Shown: one piece after another, positions 458 through 11,488 of the stretch | Position numbering within the stretch: position 1 is the stretch's first letter | Layout: each line of letters begins with the position of its first letter | From: a virus | Virus genome (UHGV): UHGV-0130034 | Strand: one strand, 5' to 3' | DNA length: 39,707 nucleotides | The notes under the pieces: model-generated | Told to the model about the DNA's origin: nothing | The model's database searches: none | Seen by the model: the letters and a program-made list of their open reading frames with translations, nothing else | Program-made: the position numbers and the translations under genes

Positions 458-2404
458 TTAAAGAATAATTCTTTCAACCTTCCAAGTTGCAGATCTACTT
501 CCTGAAATTCCAACTCCATTTGAATCTTTGAGAAGAATTCTAAATGATGTTTCTGTTACCAAATCATACGTTGCATTTATTGCTGCGCCATCTCCTATCG
601 ATATTGAGATAAAATCAGGCACAACTCCAAGTCCGTGAGTTATTATTTGTCCATTTGAATAAACCCCAGTTCCTATTTTAGTCGTTGCATACCCGGCATT
701 GTTTGCAAGGACAACATTAACCGAATTTGCTCCTAATTTAGCAATCTTCCTATCAGATGAAATCTCTGTAGATTGTATTGCATTATTTGAAATAACTGCA
801 TCTTTTATAGCCCTGAAATCTCCAGGTGTTCCTGATACAGCATTAACAAGTATTGCATACTGCATACTTCTATCACTTCTTTTATTGCCGAAAGCATTAC
901 CGCAAATTGTTGTCCCGGTAAATCCAGATGCTCCCGTGTTATCAAGAAGAATTCCGCACCTATATGTATTTGATGTATCAGAAGGCAAACCTATACCTCT
1001 TATGGAATTATTGGATACTATATTATTATCTGGCTTGACATTTGCATTATTGCAGTAAATGCGAATTCCAACATCACAAAATGCATCTAATACATTATCA
1101 GATATAACATTACCCGCTCCCCACACATCAATACCCATAAACGAATCAGCACCATCTCCAAAAAATTTATTTTGAGTAACTATTGTTCCGCTACCCCTAA
1201 TCAATATAGCAGGCCTTGGAATGCTTGAAGTCTTTTTGCTATCATTGTAGCCATGATTATCGTTTATATGAGATTCCCCCCCCGCACTATCTATGCAGCA
1301 ATTACACGAATCTATTATATTTTTATTTATCCTTACATAGACAGAATCGTGTTTTATACCTGTAATAAAATTTGATATGGAATTTGATACAAAACTAGTT
1401 GCCTTACATGGCAATGAAACGCCATGTATAGCGTCCTTAGACGCTCCTATGGCAACAAAATGTATCCCTGTAACAATTGCTGGGTTCTCATTAGATGATG
1501 TGTCACCTATGGTAATAGCAAAAGAATTCTCATCTTCAGGACCATCAATTGTTAATATCGTTTGTGGCGTATATCCTTGAGATATTTGCGATCCATTTCC
1601 TGAACCAAACCCTCTCATACTTACAAAAGATGGGATTCTTAGTTTTTCTGTTACTCTACAGTTGCCCCCCCAAAAAAATTCCTCTTTAACATGGGCAGCG
1701 GCCAGCATGATTGGAATTGTATCATCTTTAACTCCATCAAGCGTCGCTCCATAATTTCTAAGGTCATTGGTTTCATACCCATTTAAATAACCAATACATC
1801 TCCATCCTGTTGAGTTATATCTGGCAAATTTATCATCTGGGGGAACAGTAAAAGGAGGAACTGTCATTTCTCCTCCAGTTATTTCATTTTCATATACCCA
1901 AAACAACCCATCATAATCTTTGATTGCGCATCGGTTGTCACGAATGATATTTTGCTTGTCATAGTTCCCACAATATGAAAAACCAGTTGCTAATTTCTGT
2001 AAATTTGTTCCTGATGCTGAGTTTATTAATGATGCGCCATTTTCGCTAGTTAATACATTATTTAGAGGGTCAGGATCATACTTCAGCACATTAGGAAAAT
2101 AGAACTGCTGCGCACCGTACGCATCATAAACAGCCATAGAATGGCCTTGCACAGTTACGAACTTGGCAATCTGTCCGTTATATACCGGATATCCGGCAGC
2201 GTTAATGATTATTGGTTGCGAAACAGGAACGTGAGAACCGTCTTCGTTCTCTACATAAACCTGAATCTGGTTTTCAGGATTTACAGGGTCAGTGTCAATT
2301 TTACCGATATAAATTTTGCCATTGGCAACGGCTTTAAAAGAACGAGCCATAGTGAAGAGTTGCGAAGGCATCGATACGATCACATTGGCTGTAATGTCTG
2401 TCAT
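458..2404 (-). CDS. gp9: Tailspike protein: P22 gp9-like N-terminal head-binding domain fused to a divergent receptor-binding domain
   Basis: N-terminus MTDITANV...[34 protein letters not shown]...[12 protein letters not shown] matches recalled P22 tailspike residues ~1-110; remainder diverges. Confidence 0.9.
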
Positions 2405-2504
2405 TTAATTTGCTCCAGATGCAAGGAATCGCCGCAGCGTGGCTACGGTGAATTTTGGGCATAAAAAAACCCAGCCGAAGCTGGGTCGTTGCGTTGGTTA
2501 TCTG

Positions 2505-3407
2505 TCAGTAGTTATGTACTGAAGGAGGTAATTCTTTATTCTTAAGTCTCATCCATGCGGAAAGATTCGTTGGTCCGTCTGGCTCATTAATATCAACATC
2601 TCGTGTGTGGTTTATTAAAACGTCTCTCGCCATTCCGATAACATACGAGAACTCATGACCGTAGTCGTAGCATCTGCCGGAATAGTTCGATTGAATTTGT
2701 TTTAGCGCCGGATACAGTTCGCGGAATAATGCCTGTGAGCGGTTGGCATAATCCCATAACCATACAAGGCTGTTTGCTTCTTTTGCAGAAAGCTCGTTGG
2801 TTTTCTTCTCTTGTTTGCCAATGAACTCGCCTTCAAGCACTACCCTGTGGATGTACTCTACTGCTTGCGGTATCTGAGATGAATCAAGCTCTTCAATACT
2901 TTCCACGTTGAAACGCTGATGAATCATTGCATAAGCTTCTGGGTACATTAGATGCTTTTTGCTGACTAGCATATTTACAGCATCACGAAGCGGAGTCCTG
3001 TCATCAACAGATGTTTTCTTACGTGCATTTTCTGCCTTTCCCTTTGTCCAGTAGTCATGCAGTACAGTAAAGCATTCTTCCTGGTACTGAATCAGTTTAT
3101 CGCGGATGTCAGCTCGAACTTTCTCAGGGTTGATGCTGAACAGCCATCCATTTAACTTCTTCAAAGGAAGGCAGAGTAGCTTACGAAGCTTCCCATCAGC
3201 GGCAACCATATTCATATGAATACAGTTGAACTTATCTAGTTGTTTCATAAGTTTTTGTTGCTGAGTACCCCAACTCATTCCAAGGTTTTCAACGATTGGC
3301 TTCATCGCAACGTATGCAACTCCGGCAGCCATGGCGGTGATAATTTGCTGACCGTTGAATGGTACGTAAGAGGTGTTCACTGCTTCTAAAATTGCTATAC
3401 TATTCAT
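2505..3407 (-). CDS. ant: Antirepressor Ant (start placed at [11 protein letters not shown], internal to the longer ORF)
   Basis: Lies downstream of arc in the immI operon; N-terminal Ant-like sequence; the 22-codon upstream extension is rejected. Confidence 0.8.
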
Positions 3408-3475
3408 GTTGGTTTTTCTCCACGGATTTACTGACAACCGAAGCCCTGACTGTTCCCGCAGTTGGGGCTTCAACT

Positions 3476-3637
3476 TTACGCGCCAATGCGCCCTTCCTTC
3501 TTAAAGCTTTCCATTACTCTCTGATAAATCTCAGAGTTAACAGACCGACCATTCTCTTCCGCCACCTTGCGTACCAAATCTAATACTTCTTTAGGCCACC
3601 GCAAATTGAACTGCGGCATCTTGCTCATTCCTTTCAT
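3476..3637 (-). CDS. arc: Arc repressor (53 aa)
   Basis: [53 protein letters not shown] is near-identical to recalled P22 Arc; the ORF-track N-terminal extension overlaps the Arc operator and is rejected. Confidence 0.95.
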
Positions 3638-3652
3638 ATTCACCTCACAATA

Positions 3653-3671
3653 TAGGTCCACCGTGGACCTA
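3653..3671. promoter_or_regulatory. Mnt operator (perfect palindrome TAGGTCCACCGTGGACCTA)
   Basis: Perfect 19-bp palindrome between the divergent arc and mnt genes, as in the P22 immI region. Confidence 0.85.
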
Positions 3672-3679
3672 TTGAGAAT

Positions 3680-3700
3680 ATAGTAGAGTGCTTCTATCAT
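3680..3700. promoter_or_regulatory. Arc operator (ATAGTAGAGTGCTTCTATCAT) overlapping Pant
   Basis: 21-bp symmetric site matching the recalled P22 Arc operator, located upstream of arc. Confidence 0.85.
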
Positions 3701-3727
3701 GTCAATACACTAACTTGGAGTGATGGC

Positions 3728-3979
3728 ATGGCTAGAGATGATCCGCACTTTAACTTCCGTATGCCTATGGAAGTAAGGGAGAAATTAAAATTCAGGGCGG
3801 AGGCGAATGGGAGATCAATGAACTCCGAGTTGTTACAAATCGTCCAAGATGCTCTATCAAAACCATCGCCTGTGACTGGATATCGCGACGATGCAGAACG
3901 ACTCGCTGATGAGCAGTCAGAGCTTGTTAAGAAGATGGTGTTTGATACGCTGAAGGATTTGTACAAAAAACCCACCTGA
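3728..3979 (+). CDS. mnt: Mnt repressor
   Basis: MARDDPHFNFRMPMEVREKLKFRAEANGRSMNSELLQIVQDALSKPSPVTGYR... is near-identical to recalled P22 Mnt. Confidence 0.95.
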   Translation: MARDDPHFNFRMPMEVREKLKFRAEANGRSMNSELLQIVQDALSKPSPVTGYRDDAERLADEQSELVKKMVFDTLKDLYKKPT

Positions 3980-3994
3980 AGGTGGGTCCTATTT
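3964..3994. terminator. Bidirectional rho-independent terminator (hairpin cccacc-tgaa-ggtggg flanked by A-run and T-rich tract)
   Basis: Stem-loop 3971-3986 with aaaaaa upstream and tcctatttatt downstream; sits between the convergent mnt and lipoprotein genes. Confidence 0.7.
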
Positions 3995-3995
3995 A

Positions 3996-4427
3996 TTAGT
4001 CTTGCTTTGTTGATGGTATAAGAGATGCGTTTGCCTCTTTTGGCTTCAAGGTATACATCCCACCATTAAAAGGATCTACAGCAAGCCAACCAATTAACCC
4101 ACCAAACACAAGGTTTCCACCAATATACCAACCATTAGCATTGGCTTTGATTGGCAGGGTAACTGGTTCGTACCCATCCTTTTCCATAGTGATCTGGTAG
4201 CTCTTTTTGCCAAAATAACTACCATCTGACTTGGCAAGAGTTACTCCTTGTGGAGTCTTGCCTTGCGCAACAATTACGCCTGATTCATCTTTTACCTTAA
4301 AGCTCGCACCGGAAGGGTTGCTGTTCACTTGCACAAGTTGCGTTTCATCACCAACAATAGTTGCGCACCCAGATAACATCATAGCACCAGCAACGACGCC
4401 AATAATCCTCTTCATATCAATTTCCAT
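3996..4427 (-). CDS. Predicted lipoprotein, likely lysogenic-conversion moron (alternative start at 4415, MKRIIGVVAGAMMLSGC)
   Basis: Signal peptide with lipobox LSGC; occupies the position between gp16 and mnt where P22 carries sieA/hkc. Confidence 0.7.
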   Translation of the reverse strand: MEIDMKRIIGVVAGAMMLSGCATIVGDETQLVQVNSNPSGASFKVKDESGVIVAQGKTPQGVTLAKSDGSYFGKKSYQITMEKDGYEPVTLPIKANANGWYIGGNLVFGGLIGWLAVDPFNGGMYTLKPKEANASLIPSTKQD

Positions 4428-4532
4428 ATTTAAAAAACCGGAAACATCCTAATGACAAACCATTCAAATGTGAAGTAGGCAAAAGATGTTTACTTTTTTC
4501 ATGGTATCCTGCTCAAAACTAAGGAGGTTGGT

Positions 4533-4721
4533 GTGAAGAAAAAATTTGTAAACGTTGCAAAGTGCGCAATTTTTATATTTTTTATGACCTTTTACGGATT
4601 TAGTGCCGGAGAAGGTTTCGATCGTGATGCCAATGCATTCAGTTTCTTTTGTCTGTCTATAGTGGTCATAATTGTATGGGTGGAATTAAAGCAAACATTG
4701 TTTCATGTGCTAGGGAAATAA
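4533..4721 (+). CDS. Small hydrophobic protein (62 aa, two predicted TM segments), divergent from the lipoprotein gene
   Basis: GTG start preceded by strong SD AAGGAGG (4521-4527); two hydrophobic stretches; opposite strand to the flanking late genes. Confidence 0.5.
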   Translation: MKKKFVNVAKCAIFIFFMTFYGFSAGEGFDRDANAFSFFCLSIVVIIVWVELKQTLFHVLGK

Positions 4722-4738
4722 CCATCCATGGCATTTAG

Positions 4739-6580
4739 TCACTGCTGTGTTGCCTCAGTGGCAAGCAGCGGTCTGATGGCATTTGCAGCGTTACTTAATG
4801 CTCTTTCATAGGCTGGCGTTCCTGCTTTGGTGTTTGCCAGACGTAAGAGAGCATTCCTTGCTGCTTTGGACTCATACAAGCGCATCATTGCACCAAAACC
4901 AGCCTCAAGCCCCATTGATACGCCAAGGGTCGCAGTTGCGCCAATCGTCCTTATCCTGTTGGCTTGCGATTGCCCCGTCTGAGTTACTACATTTGCGGTG
5001 TCTGACCTTGCTGTTTGCTGTAGAACTTCATGAAGAGCATCAAGCTCTTTCATGTGCTTTCCAGAAAAAATAGTGTTGTAAATTTCACCGCCTGACTGAG
5101 ATTTCAGCTTATTAACTTCAGTGATGAACTTGGCTGGAGAGTCACCGGACTTTTCCGCTATTTTGCTGACGTAAGCTGCACGCATAGCATCTTTCCCTTT
5201 ATCATCCAATGCGCTCCAGATTCGTTTCACGTCAGATGGTTTTCTGCTTAATACAACGGTATTTATAAGTTCAGGACTGGCTTCACTGCTTGCCTTGTTG
5301 AGCTTGTTAGCAATGTTTTTATTAAGCACCTTATTATAAACGTTTGCATAATCGGAGTTTGCTTTAAGGTATTTTGCTGCGTCTGATGCACCGAGGTTTT
5401 TTGCAACTGCGTTACGAAGATCTTTTGACATTGCATTCTCTACCATATTGGTAGCTGCTTTTGCCTGGTTGGGGAAGACCATAGCATCTCCCTGAACATT
5501 AGATCTAAATGCTGTTCTGTGCTGACGCAAGAGATCAAACGTAACATCCAAATCAGTTGCAGGGTTTGCTAATTCTTCACGCAGGTTACGCAAGGATGTA
5601 AGCAGGCTTTGATTGGCTGAAGTCCCAAGCCGTTCCTGTCTTGCGATCGCTGTATTCAGAGCATTCATGGTATTTGTAGTATCAACTGCGGCATTACCCA
5701 TTTTATTGGTGACGTCATTGATAACAGCGCCAGCAGCATCCTTCCGCCCCCTTAACGTGGTGGTCAGAGATTTCACCACATCATCAGGGTTGTACTCACC
5801 AAAACGGTCAAAATAATTACTTACCAGCTTACTGCGCGTTGCATATTGCTCAGCTCGCTTTGATCCTGTCCCGAGCAAAGCCCCCTCAGCATCCTGAGTA
5901 AGGCCACGAGTGAAAGCATTTTTCGGCGGGATTACATCAGATGTCATAGGTGTCACGCCCATCGATTCTGATGTGGCAATTTTTTTCGCTACTTCTGGCG
6001 CAATATCGCCTTTTATAGCCGTTATTCCACGCCCTATTCCCTTTGCTGCTGCGGAAAGAACACCCTGCGCGGCAAGGTTAACCCCGGCATTTTTAGCTGC
6101 ATTTTGCGCGAAATCGCCTTTCTGGTTAGCGGCCTCTGCCAGTGATCCAATAGCCACGCTTCCTGCCGTTCCAACTCCAGGAACTAAATACCCACCAATT
6201 GTTTCTCCAGCTTGCGCATAAGGGTCTGTTGGTCGATCTACTGGACGATAGACATCGTCCAAAACCTTGGGGCCACCAAGCCCCTGGCTGATTGCATTAA
6301 TCAGACTTGCGCCACCCTGCAATACGTCAAATGGTATGTTTACCAGACCACGACCAGCCTGCTCTGCAATTTGCCCTGCACTTTGACCACCTGTGAGCCA
6401 ATCGCCAGCTTGTTGCATCAATGATGGTTCTTCACGTGCTGGTTCATTATTGGCCTGATTAACTGTTTGTTGCTGAACAGCCTGACCAGCAAAATACTCA
6501 TCAATAGCGGTGCCAATATCTTCGGTGCTCGTACCATCAGGGAAGGTAAATGTCTTACCGTTTGCAGTTACTTTCATCAT
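4739..6580 (-). CDS. gp16: Ejection (DNA transfer) protein gp16
   Basis: N-terminus [32 protein letters not shown] resembles recalled P22 gp16; length 613 aa; position after gp20. Confidence 0.85.
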
Positions 6581-7956
6581 TCCACCGTAAATTGAATGCC
6601 TGATTTTGACGTGTAGCTACCTCCTGCTGATTGCTGAGTAGGCGGCTGTTGCATTGATGATTTCTTCCCTCCATTACCGACATTAACGTTATATTGCTGG
6701 TTGTAATTGTCGGTATATTGCTTAATGTCGCGCATTGATTGTTGCAGTGCTTCAGGGCTTGAGAAATCAACCTGTGGCATACCTTGAAAATACATCTTTG
6801 CTTCTGCAACGGTGTTGATACCGGATGCCCCCATGTCTCTGGCTGCTGCAATGCCCTGATTCTGCATCTTTCCTTGGATTCGCTGTGCAGCGTTGTATAG
6901 TTTCCTCTGATCACCACCAGATGCACGGCTACGAATATCTGCACCAAGAGCAGGAGAACCTGAAGAGCCTGTAATGCCAGTCATGAAGCCAAGATCGTCA
7001 ATTGATGCACCAGAAATTGCATCAAGATCTTTCTTCATTGCGTAATTCTGCGCGCTTGCTGCCGATGTAGCCGGAGCGGCAATAGAGCCAGCAGGGACGC
7101 GAACCATATTCCCCTCGTTGTCGATACCTTCGTAGAACGCATTAGCCCCAGCGCCGTGAAGCTTCCCGCCTACCGTTACAGTTCTGCCATCTGCTAACTG
7201 AACTGTACGCTCATTATTCCCAACCGCCCCTTTCATTGATGCTCTCTGCATCGATAAATCCTGACCGCGCATCGTGATATTCTGACCACGCGCTGTTAGC
7301 GCCTCGCCAGCCTTATTGCTGCGGATTGTCTCTGCCAGCTGGCCTCGGTCAATCTCACGACCAACCATCTTATCCTGAACAGCAAACGCCTTTTCTGGTC
7401 CAAGCGCACCGAGAGACATAGTAGTCAGCATGTGTGATAGCTGCTCTGGATTCTGAATACCTGTCTGAATCATCCAGTCAGCATTCGCCCCCACGCGATT
7501 TAACCTGTCCTTGTTGTCAGTAATGAATTTACTGTAGGCTTCCGGTCCCTGAGAAAGAGCGACGTTAGCCCTCATGGCTAAATCGCCCATATCGTTGCGT
7601 TGCTGCTCATTAAGACCTGAAAACGCCTGTTGTGCCTGTGCAACAAACGCCGGATTTTCCTGGGCAAACTTAAATAGTCCCGATGGATCACCAGAAGCCC
7701 ATGCATCAGCATGAACCTTATTGAACGCACTAATCGCTTTCTGTTGCTGTTCCTGATTGTAAATATCAGCAACTCCAGCCAGACCACGTAACGCGGTCAG
7801 ACCAACGTTATTTGCACCTGAGCGAGCCAGTTCATTGTTTTCGCGGATCAGACCAAGCGTTGCGTTAATGTCGCTTGCCTTTGGCGCATTCTCATTTTGC
7901 GTACCGATGCCAGCCAGAAAACCACCAGAATTAATACCCTGTTGCCACGTAGCCAT
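6577..7956 (-). CDS. gp20: Ejection protein gp20
   Basis: Position and length (459 aa) match P22 gp20; overlaps gp16 start. Confidence 0.8.
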
Positions 7957-7966
7957 TGATTACCCC

Positions 7967-8659
7967 TTAAAACAACGAGCCAAGCAGACCAAGACCGCCG
8001 CCGATCGCAGCCCCCCACGGAGTTGATGAACCAATTAATTTCGCAAGTCCGGCCCCAGCAATAGCACCAGACGCACCTCCGCCAATAGCAGATTGCATTG
8101 CTGATGGTCTGTTGGCATTTGCCGCTGCAAGAGCCGCACTTTGCTGCGAAATCTGACTCATGTTGTTGGCATATGTCTGCCCGGCGTTTGCCTGACCTTG
8201 CAGTGCGCCAAGACCAATGTTTGCCAGATTCTGGTAGTTGTTCATCTGACCAGACAGCCACTGCTGACCAAGCGTTGGTGCGATTGTTGCTAACTGATTA
8301 CCGGTTGCAGTGGAACCCAATCCACCTGTTGCTTCCGCTGCCGCCAGACTCTGATAGCGAGCCTGACCAGCAAGATCTTTGTACTGCTGAGAGTTGTAAT
8401 ACTGGTTTAGCGCCTGACCTTGCCCCTCCAGAGACGATAAGTTCTCGAGGCTGCCGACATACTTATCAGCCAGAGGAGTAAACGGCTTCAGGTTATTCAT
8501 GATGGTGTTGAACTGCTGATTTTGCAGGTCTGCGGCATACTTCTGAGCTTCTGCTGCATACTTTGCGCTTTTATCAGAACTGCCACCTTTCCCGCCTTTT
8601 TCAGGGCAATAAGGTTCCTCGCCGCGCAGTTTTCTGCCCAGCTTAAATGCATATAACAT
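7967..8659 (-). CDS. gp7: Ejection protein gp7
   Basis: 230 aa, N-terminus MLYAFKLGRKLRGEEPY, Gly/Ala-rich C-terminus; position as in P22. Confidence 0.8.
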   Translation of the reverse strand: MLYAFKLGRKLRGEEPYCPEKGGKGGSSDKSAKYAAEAQKYAADLQNQQFNTIMNNLKPFTPLADKYVGSLENLSSLEGQGQALNQYYNSQQYKDLAGQARYQSLAAAEATGGLGSTATGNQLATIAPTLGQQWLSGQMNNYQNLANIGLGALQGQANAGQTYANNMSQISQQSAALAAANANRPSAMQSAIGGGASGAIAGAGLAKLIGSSTPWGAAIGGGLGLLGSLF

Positions 8660-10070: not shown

Positions 10071-11488
10071 TACTCAATCCTTATCTGGCAGCCAGACAGA
10101 GTGACAGGTGACTTCGTGATAACGCGCAATTTGAAGCCGACATTTTTCCTGATGCGCCCTACTTTCTTCCACAAAACGCGTTTGTCGTAAACGAACGGTT
10201 CATTCTGCTCAATCATCTGCTCACGCCCGTAATTGATGCCGTCAGTGGTTGCAGAGAGAAAAAGGCGGTCAGCATACTGCGCAACGCCAGTTGACGATTC
10301 AACCTCAAGGTCGAACACTCTGGCGTTATCCGCTTTGAACAGTGGAGTAAACAGCAGGTGTTCCTGTTGCTTGTCGTACTGGCTGCTGATGTCGAATTGC
10401 AATTTCCCGGTCACGGACTCCAGCTTATCGCCGCACGTTATCTGATTGCCTTCGTAAATGAAGTCGATAGCGCGGTACACATCGTCATACAGGCCTGTTT
10501 TCAACACACACCATTGCGGACCATTGGCGCTTGAAGATGCGTCGTAAACAAGAACATGGCGCGGCAGGTGAATAATCAGCAACTCATGCGCATCAAATCG
10601 CAGAGACTCCATCACGCCATCAGCCAGTTCATCAGCAGTGTAGGAGCGGAGGATTTTCTCAATGCTCGCGCTGGCGATTGGTGATACCTGACCGGAGCCG
10701 ATGATGTACACAGACGGCGCGCCTGTTGCCGGATTGCTGATGAACGCATACGAGTCAGCAAACGGCGTTTTGCAGTAGGTTCCGGCAATGCCTTTCTGCA
10801 CCATCAGTGATGGCTGGGCGACATACAAAGCAGCCCCAACAGTGGTTGCACCAGTCAGGGAGAAATATTCAATCGTCGACGAACCAAAGCAGACTATGAA
10901 GTCTCGCCATGTACCTATGCCGATGATGCCGTCAGGCTGCGACTCTGCACGATATTGTGCGCTGTATCGGTCAGGATGCGATTCGTCTTCAAGGTCAGTG
11001 ATAAACCATGAATCAGTTCCGTCTTTTGACCACGCATAACGCCCACGTAAGCGTGTAATGTCGCGGACTGAACCTAACTCATACTGAGTGAATCCGCTGT
11101 CTGTCGGCCAGTTTGAGACGGTTTTAACCGTGCCATCATAGCGATACTCGACCAGTTGACCATTAACGCCTACCGCCTGTGATGTCCGACCATGTGCCAT
11201 TGATACACGACCACTTCCGGCAACATCACCGACTTCGCTTTCGCCCTTATACAGCTTGCCCCCGCACACGCGATAAACAGCACTCTGCGCCATGTTGTAC
11301 TCGACGCCGCGAGATACGCCGTTCACATCAGAGCGTTTGGCAATGCCCGGGAATGAGCGAAGATATCCGCTGCTGTTGAGTATTTCTTTGGGTGTAGCCA
11401 GCATATTCACTGGCAGATAGTCGATATAGTCGGCGTTTCGGAAATCTTTGCCGACACCTTTCATAAGCGGAAGTTGCTGAATCGGCAT
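10070..11488 (-). CDS. gp10: Tail accessory protein gp10
   Basis: 472 aa, same length and position as P22 gp10. Confidence 0.85.

Follow-up and report, generated by a model that had tools for sequence, protein, structure and literature searches.

What do P22-like phages carry in the place of the superinfection exclusion gene sieA when sieA itself is not there? We address this question in the virus genome UHGV-0130034, a stretch of 39,707 nt (hereafter the window) that represents a mosaic P22-like (Lederbergvirus-type) E. coli phage or prophage, with APC_JM3.2 and IME10 as its closest phage records (~94% identity over 56% of the first 25 kb). At the left end of the window the late (minus) strand carries homologues of gene 7, gene 20 and gene 16, followed by an interval and then by mnt (plus strand), arc, ant and the tailspike gene; P22 has the same layout, with sieA between gene 16 and mnt. 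Here the interval holds a minus-strand lipoprotein gene and a plus-strand gene for a 62-aa protein, which a first-pass annotation made from the DNA alone had proposed to form one superinfection-exclusion or conversion cassette. We find that the cassette idea does not hold: the two genes are separate accessory genes (morons), mosaic modules that mostly occur apart, in a hypervariable slot that is an ordinary accessory-gene hotspot, and the 62-aa gene has taken the place of sieA at single-codon precision. The features of the slot and its boundaries are as follows (SD, Shine-Dalgarno sequence).

3728..3979, plus strand: mnt, Mnt repressor, 83 aa, left slot boundary; 98% nucleotide identity to P22 mnt; immunity-I region.
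3965..3990, bidirectional: intrinsic terminator hairpin, stem 3970-3987, common to the convergent mnt and lipoprotein genes; TTTTTTG follows on the minus strand.
3996..4415, minus strand: lipoprotein gene, 139 aa; signal peptide 4368-4415; lipobox Cys codon 4365-4367; Ala at +2.
4446..4474, minus strand: putative lipoprotein promoter, sigma-70-like, TTCACA-17 nt-TAGGAT; scan match 9/12.
4502..4535, plus strand: conserved sieA-type expression socket TGGTATCCTGCTCAAAACTAAGGAGGTTGGTGTG; extended -10-like TGGTATCCT, SD 4521-4527, GTG 4533-4535.
4533..4721, plus strand: gene for a predicted 62-aa small inner-membrane protein (PHROG 21338); GTG start 4533-4535; predicted N-in/C-in two-helix hairpin.
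4739..6580, minus strand: gene 16 homologue, DNA-ejection protein, 613 aa, right slot boundary; 73-82% identity to P22/Salmonella gp16; PF26808 Phage_P22_gp16 in relatives.

The slot was named the "ant moron" in the epsilon34 genome paper, which described ten gene sets among sixteen genomes (PMC2629481), and between gene 16 and mnt or the tailspike gene we find differing genes in P22, epsilon34, UPF_BP1, phiv205-1, Gally, E. coli prophages and BTP1. As is characteristic of morons, accessory units of phage operons with transcription of their own (Juhala 2000; Cumby 2012), the genes of the slot are present, absent or replaced among otherwise syntenic relatives. A 33-nt block that ends in the start codon, TGGTATCCTGC(T/A)CAAAACTAAGGAGGTTGGTGTG, is invariant in the window, P22, epsilon34 and phiv205-1. 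In P22 it directly precedes and includes the sieA start and overlaps the annotated PsieA promoter region, in epsilon34 it precedes the hkcB-like gene 14 (the gp14/hkcB start), and in E. coli prophages the same intergenic region precedes a different gene of 122 aa. Similarity ends right after the GTG in every case compared, which indicates that the cargo is swapped at the start codon of a conserved expression unit. By this comparison the 62-aa gene has replaced sieA exactly at the start codon, inheriting its leader and ribosome-binding site. The first-pass annotation had placed the interval where P22 carries sieA, and this proves exact: over the 33 nt that end with the GTG, the window and the P22 sieA leader do not differ. 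Morons often bring their own promoter and terminator, and this applies only partly to the 62-aa gene, which shares the sieA leader and promoter region; the position of its plus-strand promoter is likewise read from that likeness, and the protein would be made in the lysogen as SieA is.

The 62-aa open reading frame (ORF) itself is present as first described, with a GTG start, a strong SD (AAGGAGG at 4521-4527, five nt upstream of the GTG at 4533) and two hydrophobic segments. It matches PHROG 21338 (E 4e-45), a family of unknown function, and had no family match in Pfam. The hydrophobic segments span residues 11-25 and 35-50, with a charge of +4 at the N-terminus, an acidic loop between them and a positive-inside charge distribution in the hairpin, and AlphaFold places helices at residues 2-24 and 32-59 (mean predicted local distance difference test (pLDDT) 69, moderate confidence), so that a two-helix inner-membrane protein is predicted. 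Invariant residues are concentrated in and around the inter-helix loop YGFSxGEGFxRD, which is predicted to be periplasmic. The gene and gene 16 converge, their stop codons 17 nt apart, and in all genomes compared the 62-aa gene is the last plus-strand gene at this distance from the gene 16 stop. Homologues in records named as Salmonella and Serratia (P22-like prophages) are exactly 62 aa long and 79-82% identical, and across E. coli, Salmonella and Serratia the ORF shows 87-89% nucleotide identity without indels and with conservative replacements. Its dN/dS is 0.14-0.34, and synonymous changes are about twice the neutral expectation (P about 6e-4 on ~29 substitutions). The SD and start codon (GTG or ATG) are retained despite unrelated upstream DNA, and the other strand is without a competing ORF. 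The 62-aa ORF is thus a real gene under purifying selection rather than a chance ORF, although homologues are few (15 clusters) and annotation has passed it over: none of the three phage records with the ORF lists it, nor do most of the 89 complete E. coli genomes in which it occurs. A reading as a class II holin or pinholin was discarded on three counts: no Pfam or PHROG holin match, a place outside the lysis region, and a strand opposite to the late genes.

The lipoprotein gene, with its lipobox LSGC, is also where the first-pass annotation had put it, with the difference that a length of 139 aa is likelier than the 143 aa claimed. The ORF at 3996-4427 (-) encodes 143 aa from an upstream in-frame ATG at 4427, and the second ATG, at 4415, is more likely the true start because PHROG 6823 aligns from residue 5 of the 143-aa form and because PGAP calls genes of 420 nt in relatives. 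The signal peptide MKRIIGVVAGAMMLSGC ends in the lipobox L-S-G-C; within it, MKRIIGVVAGAMMLSG would be cleaved before the C, which is followed by A-T, and this fits the lipobox [LVI][ASTVI][GAS]C with no Asp at +2. Under the Lol sorting rule, lipoproteins without Asp at +2 go to the outer membrane, and this is the predicted destination here. In 34 homologues the Cys and the ATIVG after it show little or no variation. The mature part comprises a beta-sandwich and then an invariant Gly-rich segment, NGWYIGGNxxFGGLIGWLxVDPFNGGMYTLxP; in the AlphaFold2 model the sandwich has a pLDDT > 90 and residues 96-118 one of < 50, followed by two terminal strands. The modelled fold is a transthyretin/PEGA-like beta-sandwich. 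Structure searches with the model returned generic sandwich matches only, and the Pfam PEGA profile (PF08308) scored 17.5 bits, below its gathering cutoff of 20.8, with PEGA matches in 10 of 34 family members at E <= 1 (best 1.2e-5). The protein matches PHROG 6823 (E 9e-86), whose function is again listed as unknown, and is the same as epsilon34 gp15 and Gally GALLYPH_14 (LF82_139), at 97.8-98.6% amino acid identity (98.6% for Gally). Across Pfam, NCBIfam, PHROGs and PADLOC, the only matches of the two proteins were the unknown-function PHROGs and the sub-threshold PEGA match; the first-pass annotation had recognised no function in either, and literature searches with accession numbers and PEGA/prophage terms returned nothing on either.

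Several features suggest that the lipoprotein gene is a transcription unit of its own. The -35 and -10 elements at 4446..4474 have a counterpart in Gally (TTCACG-17-TAAGAT) despite divergence of the rest of the intergenic region, and in copies from siphovirus prophages (loci L015 and L017; TTGAAC-17-TAGGAT with a shared downstream GTTTCCGnTTTTTTAAA), so that the architecture is kept in three diverged contexts. Promoter function at this site is likely on these grounds, apart from the lysogen transcription of the Gally copy described below. At the other end, the terminator is a plus-strand scan match with a minus-strand fold of -14.5 kcal/mol (z -2.9); epsilon34 has an annotated Rho-independent terminator at the corresponding site, and a GC hairpin with a T-run lies just after the stop codon in every phage-borne copy of the gene. 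GC content dips to 0.37-0.40 around 4350-4800. The gene thus reads as a promoter-gene-terminator unit, with its own promoter and its own terminator. Being co-oriented with the late operon, it presumably also receives late read-through.

Published, strand-resolved RNA-seq data from E. coli LF82, a lysogen of Gally, allowed us to follow the lipoprotein copy LF82_139 (values in log2(fpkm+5), where fpkm is fragments per kilobase per million reads). It reached 6.2 and 4.8 in lysogeny broth (LB) in stationary phase, 9.8-10.5 in Dulbecco's modified Eagle medium (DMEM), and 11.0 at 1 h and 9.4-9.5 at 6 h in macrophages, while under the same conditions the C2 repressor stood at 8.9-12.0 and the adjoining ejection gene at 3.6-4.2. 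With the ejection gene at background, the values of LF82_139, low in LB and close to those of the repressor in DMEM and macrophages, indicate that the repressed prophage transcribes this gene without the late operon and to a degree that depends on the conditions. The first-pass annotation had argued from an orientation against all flanking late genes to an independent promoter and likely expression in lysogens; the orientation argument stands for the 62-aa ORF and fails for the lipoprotein gene, which runs with the late operon. Independent transcription in a lysogen, the lack of which that annotation had itself named as evidence against its idea, is seen for the Gally copy of the lipoprotein gene.

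The lipoprotein belongs to a very large family. A word-indexed search recovered 726 clusters and an exhaustive one 5,352 representative clusters at E <= 1e-3, and relatives occur in 294 species-representative genomes. Most copies are chromosomal, with unrelated lineage-specific neighbours, and the phage gene is best read as captured from this proteobacterial chromosomal lipoprotein family. Many of the copies in Enterobacterales (55-77% identity) belong to lambdoid siphovirus prophages, where they are read in the direction of the tail genes and sit at the junctions T/tape measure (E. coli, Proteus), tape measure/M, K/I and I/J; T/tape measure is the slot that the gene 15 moron takes in HK97. 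Of ten long family members, one is a fusion to an OmpA-type barrel and the others have Pro/Ala-rich tails resembling periplasmic linkers, which fits an outer-membrane or periplasmic location of the family. In the E. coli siphovirus prophages L007, L009 and L010, which carry the lipoprotein gene at T/tape measure, a porin gene (Porin_1/Porin_4) lies between M and L (about 10261-11424 (+)), and L008 has a ClpP-Arc-antirepressor block after L; these tail modules hold several morons.

What the two proteins do is a question of likelihoods, and here we infer localisation, expression of the 62-aa ORF and all functions. The best explanation of the locus as a whole, which we advance tentatively and at a little under even confidence, is that the products of both genes alter the lysogen envelope and provide prophage-expressed protection. 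The 62-aa protein would then mediate superinfection exclusion at the inner-membrane DNA-delivery step, like SieA, HK97 gp15 and T4 Imm, with its invariant periplasmic loop contacting the incoming gp20/gp16 conduit. Exclusion is favoured for it because it replaces sieA exactly, because sieA is present in only 22 of 66 P22-like phages (PMC10883804), and because precedents among membrane proteins block the conduit or tape measure. The lipoprotein we envisage as protecting the cell in a general way, from the outer membrane or the periplasm: it could get in the way of a phage conduit or tape measure, or make the cell more resistant to stresses met in the host. Its repeated insertion beside DNA-delivery genes, in two slots known for exclusion genes, points to a block at entry. 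Of the two proteins, the 62-aa one is the more plausible agent of exclusion at DNA delivery, and that at least one of the two excludes phages is possible but, in our estimate, somewhat short of probable. A bolder version, in which the lipoprotein represents a new widespread outer-membrane class that impedes periplasmic phage DNA delivery and the 62-aa protein is a minimal SieA replacement that blocks the gp20/gp16 conduit, so that independent modules form a layered outer- and inner-membrane block, we regard as unlikely; if true, it would explain the repeated capture of the lipoprotein gene beside ejection, tape-measure and tail-tip genes in two morphotypes.

The two proteins could form one two-component system, an outer-membrane and an inner-membrane partner under a shared divergent control region, as their predicted locations and their adjacent, divergent arrangement over a 105-bp region (97-100% conserved in nine E. 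coli genomes) would suggest. E. coli strains with the exact arrangement include APEC IMT5155 and strains of O111:H8. Their distribution largely refutes this: the 62-aa ORF is adjacent in only 9 of ~308 complete E. coli genomes with the lipoprotein gene, the same intergenic region elsewhere drives hkcB-like or 122-aa genes, and in most of the 89 E. coli genomes with the ORF this lipoprotein gene does not adjoin it. The ORF also occurs with a different lipoprotein, a Rap1a-family gene, a toxin-antitoxin pair or a P63C-domain gene, and the lipoprotein gene stands alone in siphovirus prophages and chromosomes. The genes are independent modules that abut here, and we give the two-component idea almost no credence. 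It is also very unlikely that the 62 codons are a chance frame in the spacer that separates sieA-type cargo from gene 16, with a conservation that reflects nothing but the recent origin of the DNA around it. The omission of the ORF by PGAP and by depositors, the 15 homologue clusters and the small number of substitutions behind the selection test are what such a frame would lead one to expect, but the constant length in three genera with conservative replacements, the synonymous excess, a strong SD at the right distance everywhere with a start that alternates between GTG and ATG, the empty opposite strand, the hydrophobic hairpin with positive-inside charge and invariant loop, and the existence of a PHROG family are not. 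A less remote, though still quite improbable, alternative is that the product that matters is an RNA from the sieA-type promoter, antisense to the gene 16 3' end, that silences gene 16 of incoming related phages in the manner proposed for STnc6030 of BTP1, the ORF being secondary or the transcript having two functions. In BTP1 a plus-strand transcript in the same slot gives complete BTP1 immunity, and the changes that allow escape fall at the 3' end of its gene 16 homologue; in the window the ORF is convergent with gene 16 across the 17-nt gap, with no predicted terminator, and in phiv205-1 and JEP4 the ORF and the gene 16 3' end were inherited as one block. Against this, the ORF is under purifying selection, with frame, length, SD and start kept in unrelated contexts; it adjoins unrelated gene 16 3' ends (e.g. 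in Serratia), which a sequence-specific antisense RNA would not tolerate; and all BTP1 escape changes are non-synonymous, which fits a protein-level block equally well.

For the lipoprotein, the alternative to a part in phage exclusion is conversion of the host, in fitness or virulence, by a factor of the Bor/Lom type, which would make the envelope more robust in serum, macrophages or stress and have no anti-phage role; through the prophage, E. coli and Salmonella would simply acquire a lipoprotein for which other Proteobacteria have a chromosomal gene. We rate this as somewhat unlikely, and it draws on much of what weighs against the protective reading of the locus. Family members with 51-60% identity occur in Halomonas, Pasteurellaceae and beta-, zeta- and deltaproteobacteria, mostly in non-phage contexts; phage copies retain 27 of the 27 invariant positions of the family; and all-against-all ORF clustering of 80 species-representative loci gave no conserved partner, only lineage-specific housekeeping neighbours. 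SieA types, by comparison, are < 30% identical to each other (PMC10883804), and the conservation of the lipoprotein looks like that of a housekeeping envelope function rather than of a fast-evolving phage-specific blocker. LF82_139 rises ~16-30-fold in DMEM and macrophages over LB, a pattern that resembles Bor and that the LF82 authors note for Bor; in LB it is ~3x the prophage background, below their 5-fold cut-off, which is why Gally was reported to be without morons. This chromosomal conservation, the intact invariant residues and the Bor-like induction together suggest a general host-benefit envelope function. In addition, no PADLOC-DB 2.0 model matched either protein at E <= 1, no exclusion family matched either in Pfam or NCBIfam, and tail-module morons include non-defence genes, such as the porins of the same siphovirus prophages. 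On the side of exclusion stands the repeated insertion of the gene by DNA-delivery and tail-tip genes in two morphotypes, including two slots of characterised exclusion genes; the LF82 study reported no phenotype and did not look into this gene, and fitness and exclusion are compatible, as Cor shows in blocking FhuA, which brings about both phage exclusion and colicin M protection. Other points that count against the protective reading concern the 62-aa gene: scans found no consensus sigma-70 promoter on the plus strand before the ORF and predicted no terminator after it, so that its expression rests on homology to the P22 PsieA region, and the diversity of the gene 16 alleles beside it leaves no co-adaptation visible. 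Linkage of the ORF to one gene 16 C-terminal allele was dropped as an idea for that same diversity, with an unrelated C-terminus in Serratia.

The other occupants of the slot are varied. Upstream of the 62-aa gene lies an unrelated 161-aa lipoprotein gene in Salmonella (the same as Gally GALLYPH_13), a gene for a Rap1a-family protein in Serratia, and a Panacea-domain toxin-antitoxin pair or a P63C-domain gene in some E. coli prophages. The 161-aa protein (MKKSLLIIPLLLAGC...) is often encoded in this slot by P22-like prophages of Salmonella and E. coli (L021-L024, 4483-4968 (+); Gally, L109, 4640-5155 (+)) and has no Pfam match; it was considered as a SieA and ruled out, being a second, unrelated lipoprotein, and its Gally copy is transcribed in the lysogen (log2 6.0-6.3 in LB, 10.3 in macrophages). 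In the Serratia P22-like prophages L025-L027 the Rap1a-family gene sits in the sieA slot (about 4643-4999 (+); PF18602, E 6.7e-16, above cutoff). Rap1a gives immunity to a type VI effector, a peptidoglycan amidase, and an orphan immunity gene of the type VI secretion system on a prophage would shield the lysogen from neighbouring bacteria, not from phages. The Panacea-domain gene (SocA-like antitoxin, PF13274), at 1791-2657 (-) in phiv205-1 (L002) and 2869-3318 in L110, lies between the immunity-I genes and the 62-aa gene, and in phiv205-1 it is accompanied by a 160-aa partner gene. The commonest plus-strand partner of the lipoprotein gene in E. coli prophages is the gene for the 122-aa protein WP_001334102 (L004 and L006, 4575-4943 (+); L110, 4310-4678), which, read from the shared GTG, has a probable signal peptide, is beta-rich and is without a Pfam match.

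The remaining genes at the left end of the window, assigned from the ORF list and homology, are these.

458-2404, minus strand: tailspike.
2505-3473, minus strand: ant, in the immunity-I region with mnt and arc.
About 3476-3640, minus strand: arc, in the immunity-I region with mnt and ant.
6577-7956, minus strand: gene 20 homologue.
7967-8659, minus strand: gene 7 homologue.

A promoter scan predicted divergent promoters like Pant and Pmnt at 3672-3705. The mechanical ORF calls are longer than the known proteins for arc (3476-3700, 74 aa) and ant (322 aa, TTG start), and going by the epsilon34 and P22 annotations Arc and Ant probably start further inside. The receptor-binding part of the tailspike gene, 458-2100 (-), has a GC content of 0.35-0.39 compared to 0.44-0.52 in the adjoining late genes, which fits a recent exchange of the receptor-binding domain.

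The slot, the moron concept and the lipoprotein gene as a hypothetical gene were already in the literature. What is new is the recognition of the 62-aa gene and of its start-codon-precise replacement of sieA; the finding that one lipoprotein family links the P22 sieA slot with siphovirus tail-module slots, including that of HK97 gp15; the size of this family (> 5,000 sequence clusters); and the reading of existing RNA-seq data as evidence that the lipoprotein gene is a condition-dependent moron. Two thirds of sequenced P22-like phages are without sieA, and for them the question of replacement cargo is narrowed to two concrete candidates. If either protein blocks DNA delivery, it would represent a new exclusion mechanism and, for the lipoprotein, the first function of a large family; if the lipoprotein helps the cell to survive inside macrophages, Gally, the prophage of the Crohn's-associated strain LF82, would carry a conversion factor that has been overlooked. 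Either outcome bears on choosing or engineering phages against E. coli and Salmonella lysogens.

Among known systems, the lipoprotein has its direct equivalents in epsilon34 gene 15 and GALLYPH_14, which encode the same protein next to mnt in this slot and share the terminator; the difference lies in the plus-strand neighbour, which is hkcB-like in epsilon34 and the 161-aa lipoprotein gene in Gally. It also resembles Cor of phi80, N15 and HK022, a small phage outer-membrane lipoprotein encoded in or beside the tail genes that acts in exclusion at entry, and Llp of T5, a small outer-membrane lipoprotein that blocks FhuA and likewise excludes at entry. There is no homology to either, P22-like phages use O-antigen and not FhuA, and the lipoprotein family is widespread in chromosomes; membership of Cor was rejected, as PHROG 1119 matches the signal peptide only (residues 5-24, E 0.004) and NCBIfam NF047972 scores 12.5 against a 31-bit cutoff.

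The 62-aa gene shares position, strand, the 33-nt leader, ribosome-binding site and GTG with P22 sieA, an equivalence of position only, and both genes encode integral membrane proteins (by prediction for the 62-aa one) beside gene 16. SieA is an inner-membrane superinfection exclusion protein with the gene 16 C-terminal region among its targets (Leavitt et al. 2024, PMC10883804). It has 162-164 aa, three predicted transmembrane segments (3-4 across the SieA family) and the cytoplasmic motif FxRYPxEAxxFNK (PMC10883804), whereas the 62-aa protein has two helices, lacks the motif and had no match to P22 SieA in BLASTP. HK97 gp15 is an inner-membrane exclusion moron derived from bacterial YebO (Cumby et al. 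2012, reviewed in PMC3594210). Like the lipoprotein, it comes from a chromosomal envelope-protein family; it differs in being a small inner-membrane protein and not a lipoprotein, and it has diverged from YebO C-terminally, whereas the phage lipoproteins retain all invariant residues. T4 Imm, a small helical inner-membrane protein, binds the tape measure protein and blocks genome translocation via a periplasm-facing loop (bioRxiv 10.64898/2026.03.06.709160), the same mechanism as the one proposed for the 62-aa protein, but it has 83-94 aa and four helices, belongs to a lytic myovirus and has no sequence relationship to the 62-aa protein. Membership of the SieA, Cor or Imm families was rejected for both proteins. 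SieA, HK97 gp15 and T4 Imm are small or multi-pass inner-membrane exclusion proteins that phages counter by changes in ejection or tape-measure proteins (PMC10883804; PMC3594210; bioRxiv 10.64898/2026.03.06.709160).

STnc6030 of BTP1, reported as a non-coding antisense exclusion RNA that confers phage-specific immunity (Owen et al. 2020, PMC7067206), is likewise a prophage-expressed plus-strand unit in the same gene 16-tailspike slot, running towards the gene 16 3' end; BTP1 differs in having neither a homologue of the 62-aa ORF nor an immunity-I region. Inside the STnc6030 region of BTP1 (L112, NC_042346) we noted a 23-codon hydrophobic ORF, MERDLLNFVFLIFGLVVGKLLFA, at 14011-14082 (-), which overlaps the last 12 nt of the gene 16 homologue (12055-14022). 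The escape mutations of BTP1 cluster at the 3' end of this homologue and all are non-synonymous, like the SieA escapes in gene 16. A small-protein or protein-level mechanism at STnc6030 may therefore deserve re-examination.

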